Shown one piece after another: positions 1,860-22,553 of a DNA stretch of 25,485 nt. Both the position numbers and the translations under genes were made by a program. Under the pieces are notes generated by a model that had not been told where the DNA came from, did not search any database, and saw only the letters and a list, made by a program, of their open reading frames with translations. This stretch comes from a virus: the IMG/VR virus record IMGVR_UViG_3300009618_000029, one strand, 5' to 3'. Position 1 is the stretch's first letter; each line of letters begins with the position of its first letter.

Positions 1860-2745
1860 GGAACGCCACAGAGGTGTTGTCGAAGTCACCGGGGCGTTTC
1901 AACGGTTACAGCGGATCGCTGCGAAGGGCCCGGTAGCATTCTGCAAGGAGGCCCTGGGATTCGAACCCACGAAATACCAGGTCGAGTTCCTCGAAGACAA
2001 GGCGCAATTCATCGCCCAGCTGTGGTCCAGGCAGTCGGGGAAAGACTACGCAGCTTGCAGCAAGCTCTTCTGGTACGCCGTCGCCAACGATGGAGTGCAG
2101 CTGGCCGTTGTGGGTCCCAGCTTTCGGCAAAGCAAGCTGGTAATTCGCAAGATCAACTCATTCATCCAACAGAGCCTTCCCAAGGATGTCCCCTACCGGG
2201 AAATCCTAGTCGGAAGGAAACCGCTGAAGACGAAGGTCTCCCTAGTCAACGGCTCAATCATCGAAGCCTACCCATGCAACCCCGACACCATACGCGGGCC
2301 AACATTGAATGGAATCCTGGCGACAGAGTTCAACTTCGTCCGTGACGACGTCGACCTGTACGACGCTATTCTTTTCACACTTGGGACAACGAACGGTTTC
2401 TTCATCGCTAACTCGACGCCCTGGTCCCGCAATCACATATTCTATAAAATTTGCAACGACCCTGAGTTCGATGATTACAGCCGTCACCATGTCAACTGGG
2501 AACAAGCCCTGGAACCAAACGGACCCCTGAAGAAAGGGATCCTTGCGAAGATCAAGAAACAGTTCGCCAGCGACCCGTGGCGTTGGCGCCGTGAGATGGA
2601 AGCAGAGTGGAGCGAAGACGACGATTGCTGGCTCCCTACTTCGCTAATCACTGGCTGTACGGATCCGGAAATGGAGATTAAGGAATTTGGCGGCGAACTC
2701 CACAGCTTCTGGTCAACAGACCTCCCCCCAGACCTCCCGCGCTGA
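1825..2745 (+). CDS. terL: Terminase large subunit, N-terminal ATPase domain
   Basis: Q motif (PTKYQ), Walker A-like WSRQSGKD, GPSFRQS, TIRGPTLNGILATE (Walker B region), ANSTPW motif III, REMEAEW. Confidence 0.92.
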   Translation: MAWRRKLEKKVEERHRGVVEVTGAFQRLQRIAAKGPVAFCKEALGFEPTKYQVEFLEDKAQFIAQLWSRQSGKDYAACSKLFWYAVANDGVQLAVVGPSFRQSKLVIRKINSFIQQSLPKDVPYREILVGRKPLKTKVSLVNGSIIEAYPCNPDTIRGPTLNGILATEFNFVRDDVDLYDAILFTLGTTNGFFIANSTPWSRNHIFYKICNDPEFDDYSRHHVNWEQALEPNGPLKKGILAKIKKQFASDPWRWRREMEAEWSEDDDCWLPTSLITGCTDPEMEIKEFGGELHSFWSTDLPPDLPR

Positions 2746-3274
2746 CTACTGGGTCGGCGTCGACCTCGGGAAGAAAGTCGACTACAGTGTCGTGGCAGTC
2801 ATAAGGAAGGACGGTGACATCTTCCGCCTAGTGGGCCTGAAGATCTTCCCGCTCGGAACAGACTACACAGGCGAGACAGGCGTCATCAGCTTCCTCAAAG
2901 TCCTCAACCAGAAACTGCAAACCATCCACAAGATTCTCATGGACCAGACCGGCGTTGGAGAGAGCGTCGTAGAAGAAGCGAAGAAATCAGTACCCCACGT
3001 CGGGGGCATAATGCTCTCGGAGTCATCCAAGCAAGACATCATGAACTTCCTCAAGATGATGATGCAACAGAAACGGCTCCTAATCGCCTACCAACTCGAT
3101 GTAGCCAACGAACTGAACATTGAACGGTTCCAACTCACGAAGGCAGGCAAGATTCAGTACAGCCACCCAGACGGTACCCATGACGACCGCACCTGGGCCG
3201 TCGCCCTGGCCGTATTCGCAACAAGAGGCCCAACGGTCCCTGGTTTCAAACCGTACTCACGATCGTTTGGTTGA
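2687..3274 (+). CDS. terL: Terminase large subunit, C-terminal RNase H-like nuclease domain (+1 frame relative to the ATPase ORF)
   Basis: WVGVDLGKKVDYSVVAV, MDQTGVGESVVE and HPDGTHDDRTWAVALA motifs. Confidence 0.92.
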   Translation: MAANSTASGQQTSPQTSRADYWVGVDLGKKVDYSVVAVIRKDGDIFRLVGLKIFPLGTDYTGETGVISFLKVLNQKLQTIHKILMDQTGVGESVVEEAKKSVPHVGGIMLSESSKQDIMNFLKMMMQQKRLLIAYQLDVANELNIERFQLTKAGKIQYSHPDGTHDDRTWAVALAVFATRGPTVPGFKPYSRSFG

Positions 3275-3518: not shown

Positions 3519-5155
3519 CTAAGGCAAAGAACAAACCACCGCCTCGTAAGCGGCGTAAGCGTTCCGTAACAAACAAGCGAAACGCGACAACTAAGCGGCC
3601 GATGATGGCCACCAAACGGGCCGAGGTGAGAGACCATCGTCCCTTAGCAGGGACCAGGGTCGCCGGTTCAAGTGGCCTCGGCGACTTCTCAGCTCTCGAA
3701 CGGATCCCAGGCGTTACAGTGAAAGAGAACACGATCTCCTTCCCGTATCTAGGAACGCCCCAAGGCGTTCGTATTGCTGTTCATTCTAGCTCGAGGCGTG
3801 TTGCTGAAGCAGCCGCAATGCAACTAAGCGGCCTCCCTCTGAGTCGTCAGCTCTCAGCCGCCAAGTCCCAATATTATCTTGGGATGACGCAAACCATCTT
3901 CGACGCTTACAAGGGGATGGAGAAGCACTACCGCGCCTATCGTATGGATGCGCTCGTGCGCGGCTGCATCAACGCCCTCGCCTACTGGACCACGAAGGAG
4001 TCTTTCGACGCTGTTCTGGAACCGGTCGGCGAAGGCCTAACCCCGCAGCAAGAGGAAAAGATCATTGCTGATAATTTGCCGTTGAAACAGTGGATTGACA
4101 AAATCAACCTCCGCGTCGACCTCGACCATGTTCTGTATGCCGGCATCATCGGTGCCAAGATTTACGGCAAGAAAGGTTTCGAAATTGAACTCAACGCGAA
4201 GATGGAACCGAATCGCCTAATCTCCCTCCCACTCCTAACCATCTACGACCTGCGCCCCGACGTCGACGAGGACTGGGTGCTGCAAGGGTTCTGGTGGCGT
4301 GGCCAAAAAGACTTCTACAAACCAAGCGAGTTACTCTATTTCACAAACAACTCTCTCGAATCAGATTGGGAAGGCCTCAGCGAGATCGAACCAGTCCTAG
4401 ACGACGTGATCACCAGGGCCAAGATCCGCATAGAAGACCTCCAAGAGGCTGCGACAACTCTCTGGGCCGGCATAGCCATACACAGCCTAGATGTGGATCG
4501 CCTGCCTGCCGGATTAACCGACGCCGACGTGCAGGACCTCATTAACACGCACATCGCATCGCTGCGTCCTGGAAAGCATATTGCCACAGACAATCGTTGG
4601 ACCGTTCAGGTTATCGACATCAAGCCTGACCTCCCAGGCCTCGTCGCAGTCAAGACCGACCTAGACCAGGAGATCATTGGGAACTTTCAGGTTCCGAAAT
4701 TCATTCTTAATCGCACCGAAGCCGTGAACCGGGCAACAAGCTATAGTCAACTGGAGTCCTTTGTCGATGGCCCAATAACGGCTATTCAACGGTGGGTGCA
4801 GCTTATTGTTGAGCAGCAATGGTACGACCCTCTGACACGCTTCTACCTCAAGACTCCCACGGGCCAGGATCCGCCGGTGCGTGTGCGGCATCGGTGGCGT
4901 GAGATTCGCACAACCGACTTCTTCGCACTCCTCACCGCAGTCTCAGTTGCCTACGACGGTGGGCTGGGATTCGTGAACTTAGAGAAGGCGTACGAGATCA
5001 TGCGGGATGGACCCTCTTCCGCTTTTGACCCCGCGGAGGTCAAAGAGCCGGTAGCAACGCAGCCACCTAGCCCAACCGGCCCAGCAACTGAAGAGCCGGA
5101 ATCCCCCGCTGAAGTCAAAGAGGAAACGGAACAACAAGAGCTAGAAGGACAATGA
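3515..5155 (+). CDS. Portal protein
   Basis: About 546 aa, located after terL. Motifs IYGKKGFEI, WEGLSEIEPVLDD and IIGNFQVPKFILNRTEAVNRATSYSQLESF...AIQRWVQLIVEQQWY. ATGA overlap at 3515-3518. Confidence 0.88.
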   Translation: MTKAKNKPPPRKRRKRSVTNKRNATTKRPMMATKRAEVRDHRPLAGTRVAGSSGLGDFSALERIPGVTVKENTISFPYLGTPQGVRIAVHSSSRRVAEAAAMQLSGLPLSRQLSAAKSQYYLGMTQTIFDAYKGMEKHYRAYRMDALVRGCINALAYWTTKESFDAVLEPVGEGLTPQQEEKIIADNLPLKQWIDKINLRVDLDHVLYAGIIGAKIYGKKGFEIELNAKMEPNRLISLPLLTIYDLRPDVDEDWVLQGFWWRGQKDFYKPSELLYFTNNSLESDWEGLSEIEPVLDDVITRAKIRIEDLQEAATTLWAGIAIHSLDVDRLPAGLTDADVQDLINTHIASLRPGKHIATDNRWTVQVIDIKPDLPGLVAVKTDLDQEIIGNFQVPKFILNRTEAVNRATSYSQLESFVDGPITAIQRWVQLIVEQQWYDPLTRFYLKTPTGQDPPVRVRHRWREIRTTDFFALLTAVSVAYDGGLGFVNLEKAYEIMRDGPSSAFDPAEVKEPVATQPPSPTGPATEEPESPAEVKEETEQQELEGQ

Positions 5156-6731: not shown

Positions 6732-6983
6732 GTTAAGAGATAATGTCTGTGGTGGTCGGACATCAGAAGTTTTTCTAATCCAGAACACCGCAACCCACCC
6801 GGCGAAACTTGACAACGACAAAGTAGGAAGGCGCCGACGACAACTTGAGAGAATCGAAAGAAGGGAATACGACGCCGCGGCCTGCAGCCAAGCGGTGAGC
6901 ATGCGCCCGGTAGGAATCCTCCGCACAAGACGCCGAAAGCCACGCTTGAAGAGAGTTTCAGTCCCTAGTTTGCTGATGAAAGC

Positions 6984-7094
6984 TTGAGCACTGCCTCAAC
7001 CGGATACTGTCCCTACTGCGGCTATCCCCTCGCTACAGTTGAGGCAGCCGACGGTACAATCATCAAAAAATGCATTTGGTGCATGCAAACTTAG
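6984..7094 (+). CDS. 36-aa zinc-ribbon-like protein
   Basis: TTG start. MSTASTGYCPYCGYPLATVEAADGTIIKKCIWCMQT* contains two CxxC motifs. Confidence 0.55.
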   Translation: MSTASTGYCPYCGYPLATVEAADGTIIKKCIWCMQT

Positions 7095-7202: not shown

Positions 7203-8252
7203 TTAGCAACGTCTGAGCATTAGGCCCAGCAAGCTACACTTTTTTACAGATCTAGCCACGCCATTTTCCGTTATGGTAATTGCTCCGGCTAACTGTTGTA
7301 ATGTTGTGTTCGGTAGTTTCGCAAGCCAGATTTGTCCATAGCCAACGATATTGTCTGTTGCGGCATAGAAAACGTAGATCCCATCTGGCCTAACAACCAC
7401 TTCCTGGTCCCCAATCTGGTCGAATCGACTGCCTTCAATGGTGCGAGCAATTAACGGACTCGTCTTCCAGAACACCTGCGTCCAATGTACGCCGTCAGTT
7501 GAGGTTGACAACGCTATTTGCAAAGGCACTTTAGAGTAGTCATTCCAAAACATGTAGTAAACCCCGCTGTCGTAAAGCACATCTTGGTTTCCAACCCTGA
7601 AACCTTGACGCCTCCCGCCAAGCACAGGATTCACGGAGTTCCTTACCCAGTCGTGGATTCCGTCAGGAGACGATGCCAAGCATGAAGCCCAATAGCTAGA
7701 GGAACGGAAGGTGGCAAGGGTGGCTGTGCATTCGTAGTACATTAGCCAAGTGCCGTTCGGCAACTGGAGAACTGAAGGATTCCACTTGTAGTTGTCGTAG
7801 GGTTGATTCGGCGGCAACACGCCGTATTGCTGTGCGAAGTGAGTCCAATGGATCCCATCTTGGCTATATTGGGTCAACAAGCCCCGAGTGTAAAAGAACA
7901 GAGTAGTTGAGTTGTATCTTACAATCATGCTTAATCGCTGGTCTGTAACCTTACCAAACTTCGTCCAATGCAGGGCATCGGAACTTTCAGCGTAACAAGT
8001 TTGAGACTGGTGCCACTCGTTGCAGCTGTACCACATTCTCCAAACATCATTCTCGTAGATAACCGTGGGCTCCCCAATCGCTCCCGAACCGCCACCCTCC
8101 ACTGCAAGACTTGGAGTCATAATCATGTACTTCTGCCAATTCAAGACAACTGGATACCAAGGTAACGCGATCGACAGAATTATTGTCACTACGAGAAGCG
8201 CACTTACCACTAGTTGCGACTTCATACTCATCAAGAGCCAACCTGTGCGCAT
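7203..8252 (-). CDS. Membrane-anchored/secreted five-bladed beta-propeller, glycoside-hydrolase-like (GH32/43/130-type fold)
   Basis: N-terminal hydrophobic helix plus repeated blades (EPTVIYENDVWRMWYS, NPSVLQLPNGTWLMYYE, NPVLG, DVLYDSGVYYMFW, STSTDGVHW). Confidence 0.72.
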   Translation of the reverse strand: MRTGWLLMSMKSQLVVSALLVVTIILSIALPWYPVVLNWQKYMIMTPSLAVEGGGSGAIGEPTVIYENDVWRMWYSCNEWHQSQTCYAESSDALHWTKFGKVTDQRLSMIVRYNSTTLFFYTRGLLTQYSQDGIHWTHFAQQYGVLPPNQPYDNYKWNPSVLQLPNGTWLMYYECTATLATFRSSSYWASCLASSPDGIHDWVRNSVNPVLGGRRQGFRVGNQDVLYDSGVYYMFWNDYSKVPLQIALSTSTDGVHWTQVFWKTSPLIARTIEGSRFDQIGDQEVVVRPDGIYVFYAATDNIVGYGQIWLAKLPNTTLQQLAGAITITENGVARSVKKCSLLGLMLRRC

Positions 8253-8425: not shown

Positions 8426-8565
8426 TGAATTTGAACGATAACGTAATCCCCATAAGTTTCATCATCTTGCCTTCGAAGCTTTCAGCGCGACCGTTTCTGG
8501 ATGTAATCTCAACTAAGGCTGAACACGGGACCTACTGAACTCCCTAGTTGTCCTGGTGATGTGTT

Positions 8566-10212
8566 TTGATGAGTGTGGAAGATGTGAAAGCAGTGGACTT
8601 GCCGGAGATCGCTAAGTTCCCCGACCGTGAGAGTTGCGTAGCCGCGCACATGAAGGAGGGACTTAGCGAAGCGGCGGCTAAGAGAATCTGTGGCCATCTG
8701 CCCAGCAAGCAGAGCCTACGGAAGGTTGCGTTCGCGTACCAGGCGACGTTTGAGCCCTACGAGGAACAAGGCAAGCATTTAGCCAAAATTCATGTAATCG
8801 ATTTGGCGCCGAACCTGAACAAGTGGCAGGTCACGACCACCGCTCGAGCTAAGGCGCTGAAATCCCTACTCGACGCTCCATTGCTGGGTCCGCCAGCTCC
8901 TGGAGAACGAGGCAACGTGGTCGGTGGTCCACCAGGCGCACCACACGAAGGCTTATGGTCGCCGATCGGTAAATTCGTCGACTTCCAATCTAACCATGTC
9001 ACCCACGGCATCGCCGAAATCACCAAGGACTACGCTTGGGACAACATCAAGAACAAGAACTGGAAAGCCGTCAGCCCCTCGGTCCTGGCATTCGTTGAAC
9101 ACCGGGAAGGCGATGTGGACGTTGTGGACGATTTCAATTTCGAACATGTACTCTTCGTCGACAAAGGCGCCTATCCGGACGCGGGGGTTGACGGGACCTG
9201 CGACAGCGAAACTAAGTGCGACTTCTACCAGGCGCTGCAGGCTGCCTGCGAGAGTCAGGCCGGCGTATTCTCGATCAATGACCAAGACCTTTCGACTATG
9301 AGGAAGGCGGTGCAGAGCGCCCGTGGGATCCTAACCGCGCTCGAGGAACGCCTCGAAATAATCCTGCACATTAAACCGGAACCTGAACCTATGATCGCGC
9401 CTTTGGCGCTTTCTTCTCACAAGAGTGTGAGTGATGGGGAGATGAACCCTGTGAGGCCTATTCCAAGCCCTAGCCAGAAGCAAGACCTCGAGACAAAACT
9501 GGGCCAGAAAATGGAGGGGGGTAACAAAATGAAAACCACTCAAACATCCCAACTCTCAGCCGCACCACTTACGACCGAGGAACGAAACAACCTCTCAGAC
9601 AGCGACTTCGCGTACATCGACTCGAAAGGCGGACGGCACCTTCCCATTCACGACGCAGACCACGTTAGGGCTGCGCTTGGCGGTAATGGATGGAGCGCGA
9701 CGTCGTTCGAGAACGATTCAGCGAAAGCTGAGGCGAAGAAGAAGATCTGTGCAGCTGCCAAGAAATTCGATATTGACAGCGAGTTGTGCGGTACGAAGAG
9801 TGGGATGCATCAATCAAAGGAGGAACAGGAAATGTCAGAATGTAACGAATTACAAGCAAAGAACGCAGCCCTCGAAGCAGAACTCACAACGCTCAAGGCC
9901 TACAAGGCCGAGGTTGAAAAGAAGCAGCGCATGGCCAAGGTTCAGACCATAGTGGAACTGAAAACCCACTGCGGCATGCTGGAACCAAAGGACCACGCGC
10001 AAGCTTTCAGCGAGCTTGAGAAGCTGTCAGCTGATGCACTCGACGCAGTCGAGAAAGAACTAACAGCAGTCCAAGCACGCTTAGACTCGATGCCTTCTGG
10101 CCCAAAGGCGAAACACACCCAAGAACAAGCGATGAACACCATTGAAGATCAACGCGAGAAACTGTTCGGTTACCGCCGAGACGAACACGGCGAGATCATA
10201 GGAGGTAAGTGA
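8566..10212 (+). CDS. Prohead protease - DUF6582-like domain - scaffold fusion
   Basis: Protease-like region (HVIDLAPNLNKW...KAVSPSV...EHVLFVDKGAYPDA), then TTEERNNLSDSDFAYID...RHLPIHDADHVRAAL...KKICAAAKKFDID (DUF6582-like), then a coiled-coil C-terminus. Located before the capsid genes. Confidence 0.8.
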   Translation: MMSVEDVKAVDLPEIAKFPDRESCVAAHMKEGLSEAAAKRICGHLPSKQSLRKVAFAYQATFEPYEEQGKHLAKIHVIDLAPNLNKWQVTTTARAKALKSLLDAPLLGPPAPGERGNVVGGPPGAPHEGLWSPIGKFVDFQSNHVTHGIAEITKDYAWDNIKNKNWKAVSPSVLAFVEHREGDVDVVDDFNFEHVLFVDKGAYPDAGVDGTCDSETKCDFYQALQAACESQAGVFSINDQDLSTMRKAVQSARGILTALEERLEIILHIKPEPEPMIAPLALSSHKSVSDGEMNPVRPIPSPSQKQDLETKLGQKMEGGNKMKTTQTSQLSAAPLTTEERNNLSDSDFAYIDSKGGRHLPIHDADHVRAALGGNGWSATSFENDSAKAEAKKKICAAAKKFDIDSELCGTKSGMHQSKEEQEMSECNELQAKNAALEAELTTLKAYKAEVEKKQRMAKVQTIVELKTHCGMLEPKDHAQAFSELEKLSADALDAVEKELTAVQARLDSMPSGPKAKHTQEQAMNTIEDQREKLFGYRRDEHGEIIGGK

Positions 10213-12218: not shown

Positions 12219-12698
12219 GTGCATAGTATGTCAGCATGGACCACCAGCGCTGAAGTCAAGATTTACGCGGCTACGAAGTGGAGTGCTCTCAACGTGTCTG
12301 GCACGACGGGCGCAGGGGGCGTTCAAGCCCCATTTCCTAACGAGGCCGCGTTCAACACTTTCATAGACAACACGCTGATTCCTCGGGCTCAAAGTCACAT
12401 CAATCGTTTCTGTAAGCGGGATTTCGACGTCGACTTCCCAGGAGCAATCCCGCCTGCCATCCAGGACATTGCCGCACGGGCGTCGTCGAATATGATTCAG
12501 TACATGGTCACCAACAAGATGGGACCACTCGTTCACGAGACCATGTTCCAAATCTCAATCCCCCTCCAGGCCGTGCTACCCAAGGATCTGCAGGACTTGC
12601 TGACGCCCTGGATCAAGCGCTATCCGTACACCGCTGTCAGCAAGTACCAGACGCCGAACATAGTCGACGGCTGGAATGAACCCACTCCAGACCAATGA
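12219..12698 (+). CDS. Head-tail connector/adaptor (gp6/gp15-like)
   Basis: WTTSAEVKIY...LIPRAQSHINRFCKRDF...IPPAIQDIAARASSNM...DLQDLLTPW pattern, located after the MCP. Confidence 0.75.
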   Translation: MHSMSAWTTSAEVKIYAATKWSALNVSGTTGAGGVQAPFPNEAAFNTFIDNTLIPRAQSHINRFCKRDFDVDFPGAIPPAIQDIAARASSNMIQYMVTNKMGPLVHETMFQISIPLQAVLPKDLQDLLTPWIKRYPYTAVSKYQTPNIVDGWNEPTPDQ

Positions 12699-12699
12699 G
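12675..12699 (+). repeat. Junction repeat J1 (connector 3' end)
   Basis: 20/25 identical to 12948-12972. Encodes NEPTPDQ* versus NESTPDQ*. Confidence 0.75.
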
Positions 12700-12947
12700 A
12701 GGGAAGTCACATGGGATTGAGCAAACTATCATCAGTTGAAGACTTTCCCAAAGTCGCAGTGATACTAGAGTGTTGTATCGTTCCGCCAATCTCAGCGCTT
12801 TGCCCCCTTTGCCTTCGTGTTATCTACTCCTGCTTCCGACAAGATTGCCGTATTTCAGCTGACGACGTTGTGGCTGCCGTGGTTCGACATAGTGATGTCT
12901 ACGGCTGCAGACCTTGGAAAGTGTTCTGGAACGTGAACGTGAAAATT

Positions 12948-12972
12948 AATGAGTCAACCCCCGACCAATGAG
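12948..12972 (+). repeat. Junction repeat J2 (start of the 127-aa ORF)
   Basis: Second copy of J1. Contains ATG 12949. Confidence 0.75.
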
Positions 12973-13332
12973 TGGCACGTATCCGGTGGCACGGGATCCG
13001 GAGACAACCTGGTTCCGCTTGAGCCGTTTGGCCCAAACGCCATGATCATGCGTGACGTTCTCGACGGCAAACTGTACATGAAGATGACGCCGCCGAACAT
13101 TGTGGTTACGCGTTGGAATTGCATCTGCCACCCAGGCCTGCACTATCGGCGCCCGCACTTCACGTGCCTGATGTTCTGTCGACTCAAGAGAGTTGCCCAA
13201 GGCAAGCTACCCTCGGTCATTCCCGTTAGCCGATATCGAATGTACATCCAACTGGACCGGCCGCATGCGGCCTTAAAGGATTGGGTGCTGCGGAAGGTCG
13301 TGTTCCCGATCGCCGAGTACTTGGCGAATTAG
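12949..13332 (+). CDS. Hypothetical Cys/His-containing protein
   Basis: 127-aa ORF with CICH...HFTC...C. No family recognised. Confidence 0.6.
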   Translation: MSQPPTNEWHVSGGTGSGDNLVPLEPFGPNAMIMRDVLDGKLYMKMTPPNIVVTRWNCICHPGLHYRRPHFTCLMFCRLKRVAQGKLPSVIPVSRYRMYIQLDRPHAALKDWVLRKVVFPIAEYLAN

Positions 13333-14143: not shown

Positions 14144-14590
14144 ATGAAAGAAGACATTGTCAAGCGCACGAAATCGGCGCTGAAGCAATTCGGTTTCCTG
14201 GTACTGATCAGCCTAGTGTTCCTATCATTCTACGGCGCGTTACCGCAACCAGTCTTCACTGAACAGGTGACGGCGACGCAGAGTCCGATCTACGTGTACG
14301 AGATGATTTCCGCCAAGACCGTCTACTATCGCTTCATCATTGTCCATCTTGGGCAGCCAGTGAAGGCGGCGCAGGTCACAGTTTCGACTTGGTTCTGGCT
14401 CCATGTTTCGATTCACATCTTCGTCAACGGGACCGAGATCGCCCAGGTCAACACTGGCGATAGTGGGAACGCGAACTTCTACACGCCCTTCCCGGAACCG
14501 CTGAGCTCGTTCACCGTTGAAGTGTGGGCGCATAACATGCTGCCGTTGCCTGACGATTTCCACGCGAACATTGTACTCTACTCAAGCTGA
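14144..14590 (+). CDS. Membrane-anchored beta-rich protein (moron)
   Basis: TM helix FGFLVLISLVFLSFYGAL followed by a beta-strand-rich domain. Confidence 0.65.
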   Translation: MKEDIVKRTKSALKQFGFLVLISLVFLSFYGALPQPVFTEQVTATQSPIYVYEMISAKTVYYRFIIVHLGQPVKAAQVTVSTWFWLHVSIHIFVNGTEIAQVNTGDSGNANFYTPFPEPLSSFTVEVWAHNMLPLPDDFHANIVLYSS

Positions 14591-15170: not shown

Positions 15171-15217
15171 TTTCTGGTCACAGTCTCATTGAGACCTGAC
15201 GGAGCGTGAAACAAGCT

Positions 15218-15667
15218 TTGAAATACACTGGCGATGAGGTGGTCATAAGAATAGGGACCTCAGCAACGAACTGCCTAACTGCGCCTCCACTAACCAACCT
15301 TGAGAGTCTCACCTACAAAGTCAATCAGAACACCACACAGGTGGCCGTGGGAATCGGCTCTCGAGGGACCGAAGTCTACGGAACACTCGTCAAGTACACT
15401 GGCACGATAGTACGCTGGGTTGATGAACTCGCCGAAGTATCCGGTGCCACAGGATCTTTCGCAACAAATGTGGGCGCCTTCACAATCGGTGCTTTGACAC
15501 CGCTCTTCTTGGCGGTCAAGAACAAGCTAACCGGGACCGGGATCGTGCTTTGTGGCTGTATAGGTGACTACCAAGAGGATCTCAAGACTACTGACGGGTT
15601 CCTTGAGGAAACATGGACTTTCATGTTCGCCTCAATCACCAACACCACCGGCTCGCCGGGTCCGTAG
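15218..15667 (+). CDS. Major tail (tube) protein
   Basis: MKYTGDEVVIRIG...LESLTYKVNQN...KYTGTIVRW...EETWTF beta-sandwich pattern and position. TTG 15218 follows GGAG. Confidence 0.7.
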   Translation: MKYTGDEVVIRIGTSATNCLTAPPLTNLESLTYKVNQNTTQVAVGIGSRGTEVYGTLVKYTGTIVRWVDELAEVSGATGSFATNVGAFTIGALTPLFLAVKNKLTGTGIVLCGCIGDYQEDLKTTDGFLEETWTFMFASITNTTGSPGP

Positions 15668-15697: not shown

Positions 15698-16027
15698 ATG
15701 GAGAAAATGGAGAACCGCAGTTACAAAGAATTAAGCAAGCAAGAACATAACTCCCCTACTCTTTTTCCGGACGCAACACAGCCTAGCGATAGCCCCGACC
15801 TACAATTCCCCATCACCTTTGGCGTCGTCATGAGCTGCAGACTTGGCGACGTGCAGAAGATCCGGAGTCAGATTCAGGAGGCTGGGGGACGCATAGTGTT
15901 CCAAACCGTCAGCAACAATTCACTCTTCCTTCTGCGTGCGGCGCAGGTGGAGAAAGCCCTTCAGGGCGACCTGAGTGTACTCACTGAGATTCACAATCGA
16001 AAAACGAGAAGGAGCGAAAAGACTTGA
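15698..16027 (+). CDS. Hypothetical protein; its 3' end is the first copy of junction repeat R
   Basis: 109 aa. The stop overlaps a TTG that starts a degenerate chaperone N-terminus (MSLEKR). Confidence 0.65.
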   Translation: MEKMENRSYKELSKQEHNSPTLFPDATQPSDSPDLQFPITFGVVMSCRLGDVQKIRSQIQEAGGRIVFQTVSNNSLFLLRAAQVEKALQGDLSVLTEIHNRKTRRSEKT

Positions 16028-16041
16028 GTCTAGAAAAGCGT
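15925..16041 (+). repeat. Junction repeat R1
   Basis: Encodes FLLRAAQVEKALQGDLSVLTEIHNRK, followed by GAAGGAGCGAAAAGACTTGAGTCTAGAAAAGCGT. Confidence 0.7.
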
Positions 16042-16076
16042 CGCAGGCAGTTCGTTCATCCTCGCTTTAAATAGAT

Positions 16077-16091
16077 GTAAGCATATCTTAC
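16077..16091. promoter_or_regulatory. Operator-like inverted repeat and TATA box of the abrB-relE operon
   Basis: TTTAAATA at 16066-16073 and GTAAG-catat-CTTAC just before ATG 16096 (leaderless geometry). Confidence 0.55.
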
Positions 16092-16095
16092 TCGT

Positions 16096-16374
16096 ATGAA
16101 AGAATCAAGAATCCCTGAGTTGACAAAAGCAAGTTCGAAAGGCCAGATAGTGATACCCAGCATCATTAGGAGACAGCTTGGGATCAAGAGGGGGAGCGTG
16201 TTCGCCGTGACGGCGAGGAAGGATATGATCGTGTTGAAGAAGTTGGAGACCGGAATGAAGCCCGAAGATTTGAGGACACTTAAGCTGATTGAGGAAGCAT
16301 GGCAGGATATAGAAGAAGGAAGGTATGAGATCTATTCGAGGAAAGCCTTCTTCAAAGAGTTCAAGAAATGGTAG
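16096..16374 (+). CDS. AbrB/MazE-family antitoxin
   Basis: SSKGQIVIPSIIRRQLGIKRGSVF motif. Confidence 0.88.
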   Translation: MKESRIPELTKASSKGQIVIPSIIRRQLGIKRGSVFAVTARKDMIVLKKLETGMKPEDLRTLKLIEEAWQDIEEGRYEIYSRKAFFKEFKKW

Positions 16375-16628
16375 AAATAAAGTTCATCGTACCCACCGAC
16401 AAATTCGAGCGTGATGTAAGAAGGATAAGGGACAAGAGCCTGAAGGAAAAACTGCAAAAGCAAATAGACAAAGTTGCCGATAATCCAAACTTCGGAAAGC
16501 ACCTGCGTTATGGCCTGAAGGGCGAATGGTGCATTTACGTGAAGCCTTTCAGACTCATTTACAAAGTCGAGGGTGACAAGCTGATCTTATTGAGATTTGA
16601 GCATCGGAAGGATGCTTATGAAAGGTAA
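16368..16628 (+). CDS. relE: RelE/ParE-family toxin
   Basis: KFERDVRRI...NPNFGKHLRYGLKGEW...FRLIYKV...FEHRKDAY. Confidence 0.88.
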   Translation: MVEIKFIVPTDKFERDVRRIRDKSLKEKLQKQIDKVADNPNFGKHLRYGLKGEWCIYVKPFRLIYKVEGDKLILLRFEHRKDAYER

Positions 16629-16655
16629 TTTGTTCGGCTGCTTCTAGGTAGCAAT

Positions 16656-16843
16656 TGCCACGCAAGTGGACCGGATCCTGCAAGGTTACACTTGCCCAAT
16701 CACTGAACTACAATGGCGGAAGTTCATAGGCAGAAGACAGAAGGAGTGTGAAAAGATTTGAGTCAAGAAAAGCGTGAAGCAATCTTGGAAGCCAGAGCGG
16801 CCAACCAGAAACTCGGCGAACTCATCACGAAGGGCACCAAGTA
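16656..16843 (+). repeat. Junction repeat R2, including a truncated copy of the tail-chaperone 5' end (16758-16871)
   Basis: 16741-16843 matches 17821-17923 at 95/103 nt. The upstream part translates ATQVDRILQGYTCPITELQWRK, homologous to R1. Confidence 0.92.
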
Positions 16844-16863
16844 TCGTTCTTGTGATTTGGGGT

Positions 16864-17346
16864 TCATTTGAAAACAAATTCTCGATTCTTGATCACGACG
16901 TTATCCTTTCTCTCGATTTCGTCGATAAGTTTGGCCACCCTCGATTTAGTCATAACGTGGCTCCTCCAGAGTTCTCTCAACAGCAACGGGAGATTGAGAT
17001 AATGGATGGAAAGCGAACCCGCAGCCCTCTCCGCTTTCCTGTCGTTGGTGAGAAGTAAGCAATTCCTATTTCGAGCGACTGCCAAACATTCAGCATCTCC
17101 TAACCCCAAGTTCAGAGCTTCTCTGACTTCTCCGGCTGCCGCCTTTTCACGCATGCCCAACTTGACTGAAATGAAATCGGGAGGATGCGAGTATCTCAGA
17201 AGCCCCAATTCTGCTCCTTTCTTAATTTCCAGATTAACACTTGGGCAGACCAAGATTCGCGATTTTGGGAAAAGTCTGACGAGCAGTTTCAGCTTGTTGA
17301 CCTTGGCAAATGTGGAGAGAATGTCTGTGTCGACGACAACGTCCAT
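16864..17346 (-). CDS. PIN-domain (VapC/DUF3368-like) toxin
   Basis: VVVDTDIL, LGLGDAECLAVA and LLLTNDRKA motifs. Confidence 0.88.
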   Translation of the reverse strand: MDVVVDTDILSTFAKVNKLKLLVRLFPKSRILVCPSVNLEIKKGAELGLLRYSHPPDFISVKLGMREKAAAGEVREALNLGLGDAECLAVARNRNCLLLTNDRKAERAAGSLSIHYLNLPLLLRELWRSHVMTKSRVAKLIDEIERKDNVVIKNREFVFK

Positions 17347-17666
17347 TATCTCATCTTTTTCATAATTTCGTCAGCCCTTCTGACATCGCTCCTGTTTACG
17401 GAGATCATCCTCTTATGACCGAGATTTGCCAACATTTCCTTGAACTCAACTACCCCAACCTCCGCAATCTCGGCGGCTTTGCCCAACGTGACTTCGCCGT
17501 CCTTATACAACTCTGCTGCGGCTGCTAGTCTCAGGCTTCGCTTCGAAGAGAGAAAGGTTCTGAGGGCGTCCTTTACGACATCGGACTTGCTTGAGTAGTA
17601 TCCAGCCTTGACCAACGCACTTATTTCCTTCTTGACGAGCTCCGGCAGATTGTAACTTGAAGGCAT
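17346..17666 (-). CDS. RHH + UPF0175-family antitoxin
   Basis: LVKAGYYSSKSDVVKDALR (ParD/RHH-like) and ELYKDGEVTLGKAAEIAEV (UPF0175 HTH). Confidence 0.85.
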   Translation of the reverse strand: MPSSYNLPELVKKEISALVKAGYYSSKSDVVKDALRTFLSSKRSLRLAAAAELYKDGEVTLGKAAEIAEVGVVEFKEMLANLGHKRMISVNRSDVRRADEIMKKMR

Positions 17667-17682
17667 GCCCCCACCATATTAA

Positions 17683-17705
17683 TTATTGATAACTGTTATC
17701 AATAA
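17683..17705. promoter_or_regulatory. Perfect 11-bp inverted repeat, likely operator of the PIN TA operon
   Basis: TTATTGATAAC-t-GTTATCAATAA lies 17-39 bp upstream of the antitoxin start. Confidence 0.7.
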
Positions 17706-17726
17706 ATACTTATCATCCTACCTTGG

Positions 17727-17923
17727 CGTCTACCTCCTGCCTGCCACGCAAGTGCATTGAATCCTCAAGGTGACACTTCCGCGATCAAGCTACAAAGGCG
17801 GAAGCTCACGGGAAGAAAACGAGGAGCGTGAAAAGATTTGAGTCAAGAAAAACGAGAGGCAATCTTGGAAGCCAGAGCGGCGAACCAGAAACTAGCCGAA
17901 CTCATCACGAAGGGCACCAAGTA
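17727..17923 (+). repeat. Junction repeat R3 (contains the functional chaperone start)
   Basis: Begins YLLPATQV (compare FLLRAAQV in R1) and continues into TTG 17838. Confidence 0.92.
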
Positions 17924-18221
17924 CCATGAAGCCGTCGAGGTCAAGGGCGTCGACAATGAACTGCACAAGTTCGAGGTCTCACCAATGAGCGACGCGGACC
18001 TGGCAGAGCTCCTACAGTCAACAAACGTGGACTTGAAGGATATCGGCAACAAGGATAAGTTGGCGTCGAACTTGGCGTTTCTACAGAAAGGCGCAGCCAT
18101 CGCCACAGGCGCGCCAGACGTGGCCAAAGCCTTGATGCCCATGGAAAGCTTGAAACTTATTCTGCGTTCGTTTGAGCTATCCGGATTGTCCGCGGGCCCA
18201 AAAGCCTCAAAGCCAAACTGA
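17838..18221 (+). CDS. Tail assembly chaperone (G-like)
   Basis: 127 aa, located between MTP and TMP. Contains the heptamer C CCA AAA at 18197-18203. Confidence 0.75.
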   Translation: MSQEKREAILEARAANQKLAELITKGTKYHEAVEVKGVDNELHKFEVSPMSDADLAELLQSTNVDLKDIGNKDKLASNLAFLQKGAAIATGAPDVAKALMPMESLKLILRSFELSGLSAGPKASKPN

Positions 18222-18373
18222 GTTCATTCGCTGAAGGATCCGTCTACTCGGCCCCTCTCGAAGTCCTAGTCTCAGAGTTCGGTTACAAGTTAACCGAACG
18301 AATGGAGGAACCCACTCGTTTACAACAAGAGTGGCTGCTTCTCATTTTTAAAAAACAGCATCCACGAAGGTGA
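18197..18373 (+). CDS. -1 frameshift extension of the tail chaperone (T-like)
   Basis: The -1 frame is open from the slippery site: PKSLKAKLSSFAEGSVYSAPLEVLVSEFGYKLTERMEEPTRLQQEWLLLIFKKQHPRR*. Confidence 0.75.
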   Translation, partial: PKSLKAKLSSFAEGSVYSAPLEVLVSEFGYKLTERMEEPTRLQQEWLLLIFKKQHPRR

Positions 18374-18391
18374 AAATGATTTGAGTACAAA
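18344..18391 (+). repeat. Junction repeat T1 (T-ORF end plus aborted TMP start)
   Basis: 44/48 identical to 20183-20230. Confidence 0.92.
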
Positions 18392-18530
18392 AATTCCCGC
18401 GAGGGGTTGGTACAGTCCCCTGATTTTGGATTAAGTGAATCGCACGCTGAGGAGTGCAGGGCTCTGAAGCTAGAGTTCAGATCGAAGTGGGATGCATTGA
18501 GAGTGTGCCTTGGTGACTACACATAAATAT

Positions 18531-18557
18531 AGAGTGATGACCACCGGTCATCTCTCT
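18531..18557. promoter_or_regulatory. Inverted repeat downstream of a TATA-like box, upstream of the DUF5678 gene
   Basis: AGAGtGATGACC-acc-GGTCATCtCTCT following ATAAATATA. Confidence 0.5.
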
Positions 18558-18573
18558 CTTGAGGAAATTCCCC

Positions 18574-18774
18574 ATGAAAGGAGAACTAGAGTACGTAATG
18601 TCAATTGGAGATAAGCTAGGGGACTATGTGAATTGCTGGATTGCTGTTGTGGACGACAAGATCATCGCTGAAGGCAATTCCGCGAAAGAGGTCTTCATAA
18701 AGGCCAAGCACCAGTACCCAGACAAGATCCCATTCGTGATGAAAGTTCCGTCAGATCCTGTAATGGTCATGTAG
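18574..18774 (+). CDS. DUF5678-like protein
   Basis: DYVNCWIAVVDDKIIAEGNSAKEVFIKAKHQYPDKIPFVMKVP. Confidence 0.75.
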   Translation: MKGELEYVMSIGDKLGDYVNCWIAVVDDKIIAEGNSAKEVFIKAKHQYPDKIPFVMKVPSDPVMVM

Positions 18775-18796
18775 TGGTAGCTTTCTTGGGCTTCCC

Positions 18797-19128
18797 ATGT
18801 CTCAAGCTGCGGGAACCAAGATTGTCTGCAAGTATCTCAGCTACCTTTTCACCCAGAAGGATGGAACTAAGCGTTACATTCAACTTCCTCTTGTGCACGT
18901 ACTTTTGGAAAGAGTGCCACAGTTACTAGTACTGCGACCGTAACTAACACTCGGACCATGAGCGCCACTCAGACCAGCAATTCGGTTACCTCGAGCACTG
19001 TGAGTGTTACCTCCACTAAGACCCTTTCAACTAGGAGTGTGACTTACACGCAGTCTGCTACGGTTACTAACACTGCGACGAGGTCTGTCACTGTAACTAT
19101 CACTACGACTGCTGCCACTACGACTTGA
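18797..19128 (+). pseudogene. Chimeric remnant: truncated N-terminus of a probable retropepsin-like partner joined to a Thr/Ser-rich surface-protein fragment
   Basis: ORF 18797-18943 (KYLSYLFTQKDGTKRYIQLPLVHVLLE) lacks any DSG/DTG motif. A different frame, 18913-19128, is a start-less SATVTSTATVTNT...TTTAATTT*. Confidence 0.5.
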
Positions 19129-19224
19129 CAGCTTAGCGAAGTTCGAGAGGGTTCTAATTTCCAAGCATACGACTTATATGGCATCGTCATCATGATGATA
19201 TAATGGACAACGGAGGATACGAAA

Positions 19225-19353
19225 ATGCTACCAAATCCACCCCCAACCTTGAAGGGGAAGGAAGCAGAGGCGTTCTTGAAAGACGCAGCGGAGCCTCCGA
19301 CAGAAGCGCAGAAGAGATTAGTCGAAGAGGCTTTGAAACGCTTCCCGAAGTAA
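19225..19353 (+). CDS. 42-aa antitoxin-like partner of the GNAT toxin
   Basis: GGAGG RBS. MLPNPPPTLKGKEAEAFLKDAAEPPTEAQKRLVEEALKRFPK*. A 12-bp palindrome TCATCATGATGA (19187-19198) lies upstream. Confidence 0.7.
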   Translation: MLPNPPPTLKGKEAEAFLKDAAEPPTEAQKRLVEEALKRFPK

Positions 19354-19362
19354 CTTATTTTC

Positions 19363-19877
19363 TTGTCCATCTTTTCCGTCGAAGAAATCAACCTACGCAA
19401 GCTAAGCATAGCTGACGACACAGGGTTCTTTGACTGCGGCAATTCAGACCTTAATGACTACATAAGATACCAAGCCAAAGACCAGCAACTTCAGCACGCG
19501 GCTGTCATTTATCTGGCCTTGTTCAACACGCAAATTGCAGGCTTCTTGAGTCTTGTATGAGCAGCATCGAAGTCAGTAGCATTGACGAAAAACACCGCCC
19601 GTTGCACACGCCGTACCGATACTATCCGTCATTGATGATTGGACGACTTGCTACTGAACTGCAATTTCAAGGCAAGGGAGTCGGCCGAATACTCTGCCTC
19701 TATGCCATCGCCACAGCTGCCAAAGTACGTGAGGAAGTTGCATGTCAATTTGTGATACTAAATGCAAAGATAGCGTCTATTCCTTTCTACGAACATTGCG
19801 GATTCAAACTGGCTGAAAATCAACCGAAAGGTCGGCGCGAGCCATTCATGTACTTCAAGCTTCCCATAAACACATGA
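19363..19877 (+). pseudogene. GNAT-family acetyltransferase toxin, split by a 1-nt deletion near 19553
   Basis: FDCGNSDLNDYI in ORF 19363-19560 and MIGRLATELQFQGKGVGRIL...FYEHCGF in ORF 19557-19877. Adding one T gives the continuous sequence GFLSLCMSSI. Confidence 0.8.
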
Positions 19878-19949
19878 GAATGGCGAAAAACGGGATAGGG
19901 TCTTCAGAATTGGAGGACGACAAAGCCAATTATCGTCCCTAGAGTTTGA

Positions 19950-20159
19950 TTAAGGCTTCTTGTCCTTGGATACGGGCGTCTTATCGTGGCTTGGGTGCTC
20001 GACCTTGAGGCTTGATGCGGTCTCTAGTTTCTTGATTCGTTCCTCTTGCTTTATCATTATCTCATTGGCAACTTTTTCTAGCCGATTAAATTTCTCTATG
20101 TCCCCTGTTTTCTTCGCGGAGCCTTTCGACTTCTTGCGCTTGCGCCAACATGGGACCAT
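19950..20159 (-). CDS. Lys-rich coiled-coil ORF, possibly a gene fragment
   Basis: IEKFNRLEKVANEIMIKQEERIKKLE. The 5' end abuts repeat T2. Confidence 0.35.
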   Translation of the reverse strand: MVPCWRKRKKSKGSAKKTGDIEKFNRLEKVANEIMIKQEERIKKLETASSLKVEHPSHDKTPVSKDKKP

Positions 20160-20182
20160 CCCTGCAACGAACCTGGCTTCCG

Positions 20183-20230
20183 ATTTTTAAGAAACACCAT
20201 CCACGAAGGTGAACGTGATTTGAGTACAAA
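20183..20230 (+). repeat. Junction repeat T2 (contains the true TMP RBS and TTG start)
   Basis: GAAGGTGA RBS at 20205-20212 and TTG at 20220. The upstream part translates LQRTWLPIFKKHHPRR*, compared with LQQEWLLLIFKKQHPRR* in T1. Confidence 0.92.
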
Positions 20231-22553
20231 CATCGGAAGTATAGTCTTCGCCATCCAAGCGGTAGAGCCGTAACAAAAACGGCGCCGTCACGAAGCAAGT
20301 AGTGTGATGGGGAAGATTAGCGCTTCAATGGGCCTAATGGGTATGGAGTTGCAGCAGCTCGGCCCAGGCTTCGCGCAAGTCGGCCAGATGATGCAAGGCT
20401 TCGCGGTTGCAGGATGGACAGGCGCGGCGGTTATTGGAATCGGCGAAGTCGTCCAAGGCATACAACAAGCCGTAGCCGCTGCGGCAGCTTCACAGTCAGC
20501 GTGGGCGATGCTTCAACAATCCCTCCACCTAACCGGCGCCGCCTGGGCTGCGCAGCAACCACAGATCCAGAACTTCGTCCAGGGCTTAGAGCAGGTTTCA
20601 ACCGTCAGCCAAACCGCTGCCGTTCAGGGGCTGCAACTTCTTGCAACCTACGGCATGAACGCAACGCAAGCGGAACAAGCGCTGACCGTCGCAACTAACC
20701 TGTCCGCCGCGAAGAATCTTGACCTAACCACTGCCGTGAACCTTGTCGGGAAAGCATTCGACGGTGTCACAACCACCCTCTCCCGGTACGGAATTATTAT
20801 TCAGACTACGACGAAGGCGAACGCAGATCTTAAACAAGGAACCGCCGACTTAACGGCTGCGATTCAGAAAGCCGGCGTCAACGCCCTACAACCCTTCACA
20901 CAGATACTTCAACAGGCAGGAATCAGCCTCACAACTACTACCGGGAAAGAGCTGACTGCGACACAGATTACGGGCGAGTTAGTTACCGCATGGAAAGCCG
21001 GCACCATCACCACATCCCAGATGAACGACATAACTCACGCCCTGGGCATCAACTTTGACTGGGCAACGGCTAAGGCGTCAGACTACAACGACATTATGGC
21101 GCAGCTGAACGATAAGTTCGGGAGCGCAGCTCAAACCCAGCTGGACACGTACGCGGGAAAGCAGCAGCAACTCACGAACGAATGGGCCGACCTCCAAATA
21201 CAAATTGGAGACATGCTTCTCCCCACACTCACATCCCTCACCAGTTGGCTTGACGACAACCTGCCCAAATTCACAAGCTGGATCACTTCACTAGCCCTCG
21301 ACCCAAGCGTCCAGACAACGTGGAGTAAATTCATGGGCGTCTTCTCGGGGTTCGTGGCTTCTGGCGACTTGACTGAACTCATGGGGTTCGTCTCTGAGGT
21401 TGCTAAAGGCGCAATTGAAGTAGCACTCGACCTCGCGATCACGGGCATGGATTTCTTAAACGCCATCATGACCGATGTGAAGTGGCTTCAAAGTGTAGGC
21501 ATCATACCAATGGGCGTCGCGACTGCACAGACGGCCCAAGTCATTCCTCAATCCAACGCCCCGACATACCAGGCCACACTTACGAATGTAACGCCACCGC
21601 CCGAAGCTTTCAGTCAAAAGAACCTAAACCCGCCGACCGACCAAATTTTCACTGGCGCGAACCAAGAACAAAACGCCCCCGGGTGGCTTCAAACGTACCA
21701 GCAGGACTGGGCTAATTTCACGACGGGCATCCAGAAGGGCGCGCAGACAGCGGGGCAAGATCTAACCGACTGGTGGAACGGCCTCTGGGCTAAGACCACC
21801 CAGGATACGACTACTGGAACGGACGACGTGACCACCGCAGCAGCGAGCGGGATGGGGCCGCTGGCCACTACCACTTTGAATATTGGAAACCAAATCAACA
21901 CTAACCTTGGCTCAACGTTATGGTCTAAAGTAACAACGGCCGTGCAGCCTGTGGCTGCGGCTCTCAGTAATACATGGTCGCAGATTCAAAGTGGGGCGCA
22001 GGCAGCGTTCGGCGCCGTTACCTCAGGTTTAGCGGCAATCCCGTCCACAAAGGACATCACTGTTAGTTCTGTGGTTTCGGATGCGGTTACTGGATTCGAC
22101 CAAGTCACCGCAGTTATCTCTACAATTCCGTCGATGATAGAAACGACTGTCACCACGATTGCGGATGATGCGATCAGCGTTATTCAAAACGTCATCAGTT
22201 GGCTCGACAAAATCCCCAGCGAGATTATGACCAGCATTAACGTGAGCCTTTCGGGGGCTGGACTTGGAGAATTTACAGGCCCAGGCTATCAACTCGGCGG
22301 CATGGTTCCCACAACGGGGATCTACATGCTTCACGGCGGCGAGGAGGTTCTAACGCCGGCGCAACAGGCAGCCATAGGCGCAGGTCTAACGCCACCCGCA
22401 GCGCCAACTTCCCAAGGAGGATCCGGCCCGATGCAACTTCAGAACCAAACCGTCGTTCAGTTGGATGGGCAAACGGTCGCAAGCATACTTGAGCAGAAGA
22501 TTATTCGGCAAAGAAAATTTGGTTCAGGCTACAAATACACGGCGGTAACATGA
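20220..22553 (+). CDS. Tape measure protein (769 aa after removal of a 24-nt intron; ORF caller starts at 20304)
   Basis: Long Ala/Gln/Thr-rich helical protein with a C-terminal GYQLGGMVPTTGIYMLHGGEEVLTP and VVQLDGQTVA motif. The start MSTNIGSIVFAIQAV is in frame with 20304. Confidence 0.92.
20266..20289 (+). other. Predicted 24-nt bulge-helix-bulge mRNA intron
   Basis: Central helix CGGU(20260-63)/GCCG(20284-87), bulges AGA(20264-66) and UCA(20288-90), intron stem GCCGU/ACGGC and an in-frame TAA at 20271. Splicing gives GCG GTA GAC GAA (AVDE). Confidence 0.8.

Follow-up and report, generated by a model that had tools for sequence, protein, structure and literature searches.

The DNA described here, IMG/VR record IMGVR_UViG_3300009618_000029, is a stretch of 25,485 nucleotides (the window, at its full length) from a virus integrated in the genome of a peat-soil archaeon; the contig that contains it is 146 kb long and is part of a metagenome-assembled genome of the Bathyarchaeia. 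The genes of the window form a block for head and tail morphogenesis, with portal, capsid, neck, major tail, chaperone, and tape-measure genes as well as a large terminase that is split. Within the tail operon, the junction between a conserved gene for 109 amino acids (aa) and the gene for a tail assembly chaperone occurs three times, and the copies, R1, R2, and R3, bracket two predicted toxin-antitoxin (TA) cassettes, TA1 and TA2.

The upstream partner in this junction is a tail-module gene of unassigned function, called as an open reading frame (ORF) at 15698..16027 on the plus strand, between the major tail protein gene (15206-15667) and the chaperone gene. Its product had no match in Pfam or PHROG, and its 14 homologues were, without exception, on Bathyarchaeia-type contigs. 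The downstream partner, a plus-strand gene for 127 aa (17838-18221, start TTG 17838), contains C CCA AAA, a slippery heptamer that is in phase, at positions 18197-18203, together with a -1 extension (the T-extension) of 56 aa ending at TGA 18371-18373, the whole spanning 17838..18373; both heptamer and extension (53 to 57 aa) are kept in nine lineages. This product likewise matched nothing in Pfam or PHROG, and it is taken to be a tail assembly chaperone of the lambda G/GT type because its gene is placed directly upstream of the tape-measure gene (from 20223/20304, PHROG matches) and has both the slippery heptamer and a conserved -1 extension. Neutral intergenic DNA is absent at the boundaries on both sides of the chaperone gene, since the 109-aa stop and chaperone start overlap (TTGA) and the tape-measure ribosome-binding site (RBS) sits inside the -1 extension.

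TA1 (16042..16655, plus strand) consists of a gene for a MazE/AbrB-type antitoxin (16096-16374, plus strand; Pfam MazE_antitoxin, 33.7 bits) followed by one for a toxin of the ParE/RelE superfamily (16368-16628, plus strand; Pfam ParE_toxin, 45.4 bits). TA2 (16844..17726) is encoded on the minus strand, as are its UPF0175/RHH antitoxin (17346-17666; Pfam UPF0175, 38.6 bits) and its PIN toxin of the DUF3368 type (16864-17346; Pfam PIN, 27.7 bits). All four matches exceed the curated cutoffs, and with recognized families encoded side by side, both cassettes are predicted type II TA modules. The DNA upstream of each antitoxin gene contains a putative TATA-like box and a putative palindromic operator: in TA1, the TATA-like sequence is TTTAAATA at 16066-16073 and an inverted repeat directly precedes ATG 16096, in an upstream region that is kept in the related locus L011, and in TA2, an AT-rich stretch with a 14-nucleotide (nt) palindrome at 17680-17708. 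Family membership suggests a role in provirus stabilization or defense. The GC content of TA1 is 0.44 and that of TA2 is 0.47, as it is in a third island farther downstream, compared with 0.55 for the viral backbone and 0.50 for the host genome.

Structure of the three junction copies

Each copy joins an end of the 109-aa gene to a start of the chaperone gene on the plus strand, and the copies differ in which half is functional. R1 (15924..16041) holds the functional 3' end of the 109-aa gene, a GGAG RBS, a TTG start at 16024, and 6 initial chaperone codons; the reading from this TTG stops after 16 codons in all, of which only those 6 are homologous. R2 (16656..16843) is formed by a truncated and decayed 3' tail of the 109-aa gene, an RBS, a TTG at 16758, and 29 chaperone codons, and its ORF of 37 codons ends within TA2. 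In R3 (17727..17923), a frameshifted and decayed 109-aa tail precedes the working RBS and the TTG (17838) of the intact chaperone gene.

A repeat finder returned a 102-nt pair at 16742-16843 and 17822-17923 (93% identity, 1080 nt spacing), along with a 26-nt family of three copies at 16016, 16750, and 17830. By pairwise local alignment, R2 (16656-16843) and R3 (17742-17923) are identical at 160 of 188 positions, with longest perfect runs of 23 to 27 nt. R1 is more distant: R3 17729-17850 aligned with R1 15924-16036 at 76 of 126 positions (z 8.8 against shuffles), R1 and R2 agreed at 37 of 49 positions over the ribosome-binding and start part (z 8.0), and the core that R1 has in common with the other copies amounts to 26 to 37 nt at 86 to 92% identity. 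These alignments, the repeat finder, and the Pfam matches bear out the original prediction, made from the letters of the window, that three junction copies bracket an AbrB-RelE and a PIN cassette; its statements that the repeats are not short target-site duplications and that the right-hand copies resupply the RBS and start of the chaperone gene are likewise supported. The translations it quoted for the copies are correct, with one amendment, namely, that chance probably accounts for the open frame of the reading 'ITELQWRK...EKI*' in R2. Relative to the functional genes, R2 has indels of +14, -1, and +2 nt, and the homologous frame is therefore limited to about the first 15 codons of that reading.

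Between the working chaperone start and its R2 counterpart there are five synonymous changes and one replacement, and the redundant tails contain indels; this pattern of decay, mostly synonymous at the working start and with indels in the tails, fits the functions assigned to the halves. The left-hand copies end at different points, at chaperone codon 6 in R1, at chaperone codon 29 in R2, and at tape-measure codon 5 in J2a, a copy of the next junction downstream, and the decayed tails of the right-hand copies begin at differing points in the upstream gene. The left end of R2 is shorter than those of R3 and of the copy in L011, which indicates that a later deletion trimmed R2.

Variable ends bear on the explanation that the cassettes were captured site specifically, by an integron-like or other recombinase acting at a core such as GATTTGAGT that is present in both junctions. 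The window has four occurrences of this 9-mer, all of them in R2, R3, J2a, and its partner J2b, compared with 0.25 expected by chance, and the cassettes are compact units running from a predicted promoter to a stop. However, the 9-mer is a TTG start plus a Ser codon with upstream context, it is located inside the repeats rather than at cassette ends, and the start contexts of relatives vary (GAATTGAGT, GATTGAGC). The ends of the cassettes are at different positions in each event, and no common motif or inverted repeat was found at the cassette ends. No tyrosine recombinase (PF00589) was detected on the 146-kb contig and no recombinase among the window ORFs that were scanned. Site-specific capture thus seems to us extremely improbable, and an integron-like mechanism is rejected for the array on the grounds of an integrase missing from the contig and boundaries that vary by event.

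Arrays of repeats are a classic source of chimeras, and the sequence comes from a metagenome-assembled genome, so strain variants of one junction might have been collapsed or chained into a false tandem array; the 37-aa ORF across the joint of R2 and TA2 is not on record in the protein collection, and a 20-mer across that joint matched only an unrelated contig in IMG/VR. Against this, the copies have diverged by 7 to 40% and contain indels, and the cassette DNA to which each one is joined is unique. Exact copies of the proteins of both flanking genes and of all cassettes are each on 42 to 48 contigs from several sources; for the 109-aa, AbrB, ParE, PIN, UPF0175, and GNAT proteins (the last from the third island), the longest such contig is the same one, of 1.58 Mb. 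An independent IMG/VR contig and a JGI contig have TA1 between the same two genes. Misassembly is an unlikely source of the array, and we give it next to no weight.

The site in related viruses

Related loci were recovered through the chaperone from GTDB genomes (G021 and G004), IMG/VR (L011 to L016), and JGI metagenomes (L017 to L022). In seven distinct Bathyarchaeia virus or provirus lineages (G021; G004; L012; L013; L014/L015/L020; L016; and L018/L019/L022), the 109-aa stop overlaps the chaperone start in TTGA, and the site holds no insert. Among the relatives, only L011, the closest, has an insert at this site, and L017 is the same virus. The comparison of cassette numbers that the original prediction had called for therefore gives zero intact cassettes (seven lineages) or one (L011) versus two in the window; the number of junction copies tracks these counts, and no relative with more cassettes at this site was among the recovered loci.

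The TA1 of the window is 95% identical to L011 7053-7668, where it is followed by a single junction copy and then the chaperone gene. This copy matches R3 at 105 of 129 positions, and the decayed tail (pseudo-tail) that adjoins TA1 in the window matches its L011 counterpart at 101 of 111. Between TA1 and the junction copy, L011 has a fragment of PIN-gene DNA (42/59, z 7.7), for which a profile comparison at the protein level was unconvincing (probability 10%). L011 was considered as a clean ancestor with one cassette, and this candidate was rejected because of the retained PIN-gene fragment.

The TA1 of L011 is also flanked by a direct repeat of its own, 45 nt long (40/45), at 6974-7018 and 7653-7697; the first 16 nt of this repeat are the last 16 nt of the TA1 of the window, and the rest is from minus-strand remnants ('MKYCEF...'). 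A search for a decayed R1-like copy to the left of the L011 TA1 gave no significant match (z 0.4). From the PIN fragment and the separate 45-nt repeat, L011 would appear to be a decayed array, probably not a precursor.

Other junction duplications

The next junction of the operon is duplicated as well. J2a (18337..18394, plus strand) comprises the functional end of the T-extension, the RBS GAAGGTGA, and an aborted tape-measure start, TTG 18381, with 5 homologous codons, while J2b (20160..20233, plus strand) comprises a decayed T-extension tail, an RBS, and the original tape-measure TTG start at 20223. Over 58 nt, J2a 18337-18394 and J2b 20176-20233 are identical at 51 positions (z 20.9). Between them lies the third island (18395..20159), 1.8 kb with genes on both strands: a DUF5678 gene (18559-18774) and a Thr/Ser-rich ORF, a small putative antitoxin gene (19225-19353) followed by a GNAT acetyltransferase gene in two ORFs (19363-19560 and 19557-19877), and a basic 69-aa ORF on the minus strand. 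This island is missing from G021, L011, L013, L014, L016, and L018. The two ORFs of the GNAT protein, the putative toxin of the island, encode 65 and 106 aa and overlap in ATGA; the 106-aa part is identical on 46 contigs, and the split gene is probably inactivated.

Farther upstream, a connector junction is duplicated at 12675..12980 on the plus strand, with 33-nt copies at 12675-12707 and 12948-12980 (25/33, z 4.8) that bracket about 270 nt missing in five relatives (L011, G021, L012, L013, and L016). L012 has a duplicated T-extension tail (51/78, z 7.5) around a mini-gene that encodes RHH only. The mini-gene, which encodes about 50 aa on the minus strand at 8528-8680, between the two T-extension ends, seems to be what is left of a TA cassette after the loss of its toxin. 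In L016, a predicted membrane or secreted protein of 166 aa is inserted after the capsid gene (3750-4389), and this moron lies between copies of post-capsid sequence duplicated over about 50 nt, including a 20-nt core that is 90% identical.

Possible exchange between viruses and duplication in place

Synonymous divergence (dS) between the window and L011 was 0.12 for AbrB and 0.15 for ParE, and the flanking genes gave higher values (major tail protein, 0.45; 109-aa gene, 0.70; chaperone, 0.46; tape measure, 0.75). Measured by dS, TA1 is younger than the virion genes around it. The 109-aa gene is itself a mosaic in which the 5' two-thirds are L011-like and the 3' third is L012/L018-like. Other traces of exchange are seen in the copies: the positions at which R2, R3, and the L011 copy can be told apart fall in clusters (8 runs over 29 sites, P ~0.01), and the pseudo-tail agrees with the L013-type functional tail at 33 of 47 positions versus 25 of 47 for the 109-aa tail of the window itself. 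In the neutral tail segment next to TA1, the window and L011 are identical at 43 of 47 positions, compared with 37 of 46 for R3 and R2 and 36 of 46 for R3 and L011, and it follows that the R2 and L011 copies travel with TA1 and that the split of R2 from R3 is older than the sharing of TA1.

Such traces have to be set beside a purely in-situ history, in which the junction was tandemly duplicated once or twice in a single lineage, cassettes dropped in between the copies without any imported flanks, and the differences among copies reflect age and unequal constraint. In its favor, derived indels common to R2, R3, and the L011 copy point to a single ancestral pseudo-copy. J2b is equally close to J2a and to L011 (51/58 each), so the second junction duplication, no nearer to any relative than to its own partner, fits an origin in place; in L012, the right copy has its nearest match in L018, a near relative. 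Because the window, L011, and L013 have the same type of 109-aa 5' region, the L013-like pseudo-tail might be a relic of the gene that the clade had ancestrally. What this history does not readily accommodate is an age of TA1 that, judged by dS, is three to five times lower than that of the flanking genes, the early split of R2 from R3 (the neutral tail of R2 has 96% identity to the L011 copy and about 78% to R3), and the clustering of differences among the copies, and on balance we consider it unlikely.

The same evidence divides the original prediction's account of the flanks, by which each cassette seemed to have arrived from a related virus with its own junction. Exchange between related viruses is supported by the dS values, by an identity of about 95% to L011 over TA1 plus the adjacent pseudo-tail, by the mosaic copies, and by the L013-like pseudo-tail; imported flanks for every cassette are not. 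The derived indels in common among R2, R3, and the L011 copy imply one original duplication instead of three imports.

Proposed origin of the array

We think it reasonably probable that this part of the tail operon is a hot spot for moron insertion, in which junction duplications keep both neighboring genes working and later allow cassettes to be swapped. The ancestral virus would have had the 109-aa gene and the chaperone gene overlapping in TTGA, with no spare DNA between them. Self-contained TA operons of low GC content, with putative promoters of their own, would have entered by illegitimate recombination, the two joins being made out of register on two replicating copies of the genome. 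A right join downstream of the left would delete essential sequence, and a right join upstream of the left would duplicate the junction and retain both genes. Survivors would then be limited to genomes that duplicate the upstream gene end, the RBS, and the downstream gene start and leave both virion genes intact; if only junction-duplicating events survive, each surviving insertion is bracketed by a direct repeat of the junction. Illegitimate recombination followed by selection is the standard model of phage mosaicism (PMC3029335). We apply it here to coupled genes.

The redundant halves would subsequently decay, giving the aborted chaperone starts of R1 and R2 and the frameshifted 109-aa tails of R2 and R3. 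The repeats themselves would become portable homology, at which homologous recombination, within a genome or between viruses, could add, stack, swap, or delete cassettes. One route to the present stack would be unequal homologous recombination between a virus with TA1 and a virus with TA2, with the crossover in the first 29 codons of the chaperone; the reverse of this reaction would delete one cassette, and the events may have run in either direction.

Several observations weigh against the hot-spot account. A donor for any cassette, or a relative with TA2 alone, was not found among the relatives or in the scans. The IMG/VR scan with the ParE toxin matched only the L011 contig, and one with the PIN toxin and then with a 22-sequence PIN alignment matched nothing. 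The protein collection holds 49 PIN toxin homologues, some on 13-kb contigs, and no close PIN relative was in the host genome, in the 105 genomes of its order that were searched, or in the 400 of its class. L011 may be a deletion derivative rather than a precursor, and the order of events could thus be read either way. Because the tail segments compared are short (47 to 130 nt), the mosaic test and the assignments of lineage affinity carry little weight, and uneven constraint along the repeat could by itself cluster the substitutions. A slower synonymous rate in TA genes may have causes other than recent transfer. Finally, in a systematic indel scan, most other inserts in this virus group had overlaps of ≤20 nt, and long junction duplication is therefore frequent, not universal.

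A further extension, which we put forward tentatively as a possibility, is that the duplicated junctions serve as a cassette platform independent of any recombinase. TA operons would shuttle with one junction copy between related archaeal tailed viruses, and arrays would grow by unequal crossing-over between the right copy of a donor and the left copy of a resident and shrink by deletion between copies. If this is true, the platform would yield an integron-like outcome using only the homologous recombination machinery of host and virus.

The hot-spot account offers a concrete view, at the level of sequence, of how accessory and defense-type genes can be accommodated where a viral genome is packed most tightly, with its function preserved, and of how the marks left by insertion come to serve later exchange. 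It would extend moron biology and shuffling of the kind described below for T4-type phages, so far known only from bacteriophages, to viruses of the Bathyarchaeia, which are uncultured and abundant archaea. A decayed copy of an upstream gene end ahead of a downstream gene start would also be a searchable signature of recently acquired cargo.

Comparison with known systems

The promoter-early stem-loop (PeSL) cassettes of T4-type phages are accessory genes flanked by repeats of about 100 bp (Arbiol et al. 2010, PMC2839356; PMC4122927). Homologous recombination between the repeats was proposed, mini-circles were demonstrated, and the authors drew an analogy with integrons (PMC2839356). The window resembles these systems in having repeats of about 100 bp around accessory genes that a close relative is without (L011 has no TA2) and in needing no dedicated recombinase. 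However, PeSLs are intergenic promoter and terminator motifs spread across hyperplastic regions, whereas the repeats of the window are a coding junction in an essential late operon; the composite of early promoter and stem-loop terminator was not encountered here, the repeat being made up of a gene end, a Shine-Dalgarno sequence, and a start codon. The window also differs in that the redundant halves of its repeats decay, its cargo is TA operons, and its host is an archaeon.

Mycobacteriophage Island3 has an extra gene, gene 68, that is not in its relative Brujita (Hatfull et al. 2011, PMC3029335). The last 18 codons of this gene (product gp68), about 50 bp, are a copy of the end of the upstream gene, which the authors attributed to recombination between repeats, by deletion or intermolecular insertion (PMC3029335). 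An inserted gene accompanied by a copy of the upstream gene's end is what the window shows too, but Island3 has a single gene and one repeat pair that covers the gene end only, with no stack, no duplicated downstream start, and no TA cargo.

Gene 15 of phage HK97, the archetype of the morons and the first to be described, lies between the tail assembly chaperone and tape-measure genes (PMC3594210), the position of the island between J2a and J2b. Like morons, the islands of the window are extra DNA of deviant GC content between genes that are adjacent in relatives, with a likely benefit to the lysogen that is similar, and the sequence upstream of both antitoxin genes suggests that the TA cassettes may have promoters of their own. 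Classic morons, however, are intergenic, with a promoter and a terminator, and long junction duplication and stacking fall outside their definition. With integrons, the window has in common an ordered set of compact cassettes at one site with repeated elements between them. It differs from them in lacking an IntI integrase, attI and attC sites, and a common promoter, in cassette ends that do not fall at a fixed core, and in repeats that are pieces of the operon's own genes. New here are a repeat unit that is a whole coding junction including the downstream start, its presence in three copies with a stack of two cassettes, the TA cargo, the recurrence at several junctions and in several lineages, and the archaeal host.

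Additional observations

The large terminase of the window is in two overlapping ORFs (1825-2745 and 2687-3274), one frame encoding the N-terminal ATPase domain and the other the C-terminal nuclease domain; the cause is either a frameshift, in a provirus that is decaying, or a further site of recoding or an intron. A 148-aa ORF at 14144-14590 is present in L016 and L022 and missing in G021, G004, and L020; its start is the ATG that belonged to the original junction, and about 17 nt of this junction recur before the next gene.

In the interval between neck and major tail genes, L018 (528-1340) and L022 (about 4200-5000) have a free-standing LAGLIDADG homing-endonuclease gene on the minus strand. 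This gene has a short flanking overlap at most and is not in the window. At the junction of chaperone and tape-measure genes, G004 has a 2.8-kb island (L007 4729-7521) with four or five minus-strand genes, one of which resembles a Vsr/DUF559-type endonuclease; a search for a junction repeat around this island gave only about 14 nt of the tape-measure start, which was not significant (z 1.8).

The tape-measure frame that begins at TTG 20223 in the window is broken by a 24-nt insert (20268-20291) with an in-frame TAA and a small hairpin, which is missing in L011, G021, L012, and L018. The tape-measure gene of G004 has a different insert of about 21 nt (L007 ~7455-7480), a few codons earlier, with TAG TAG and a hairpin, and this looks like a second, independent instance.

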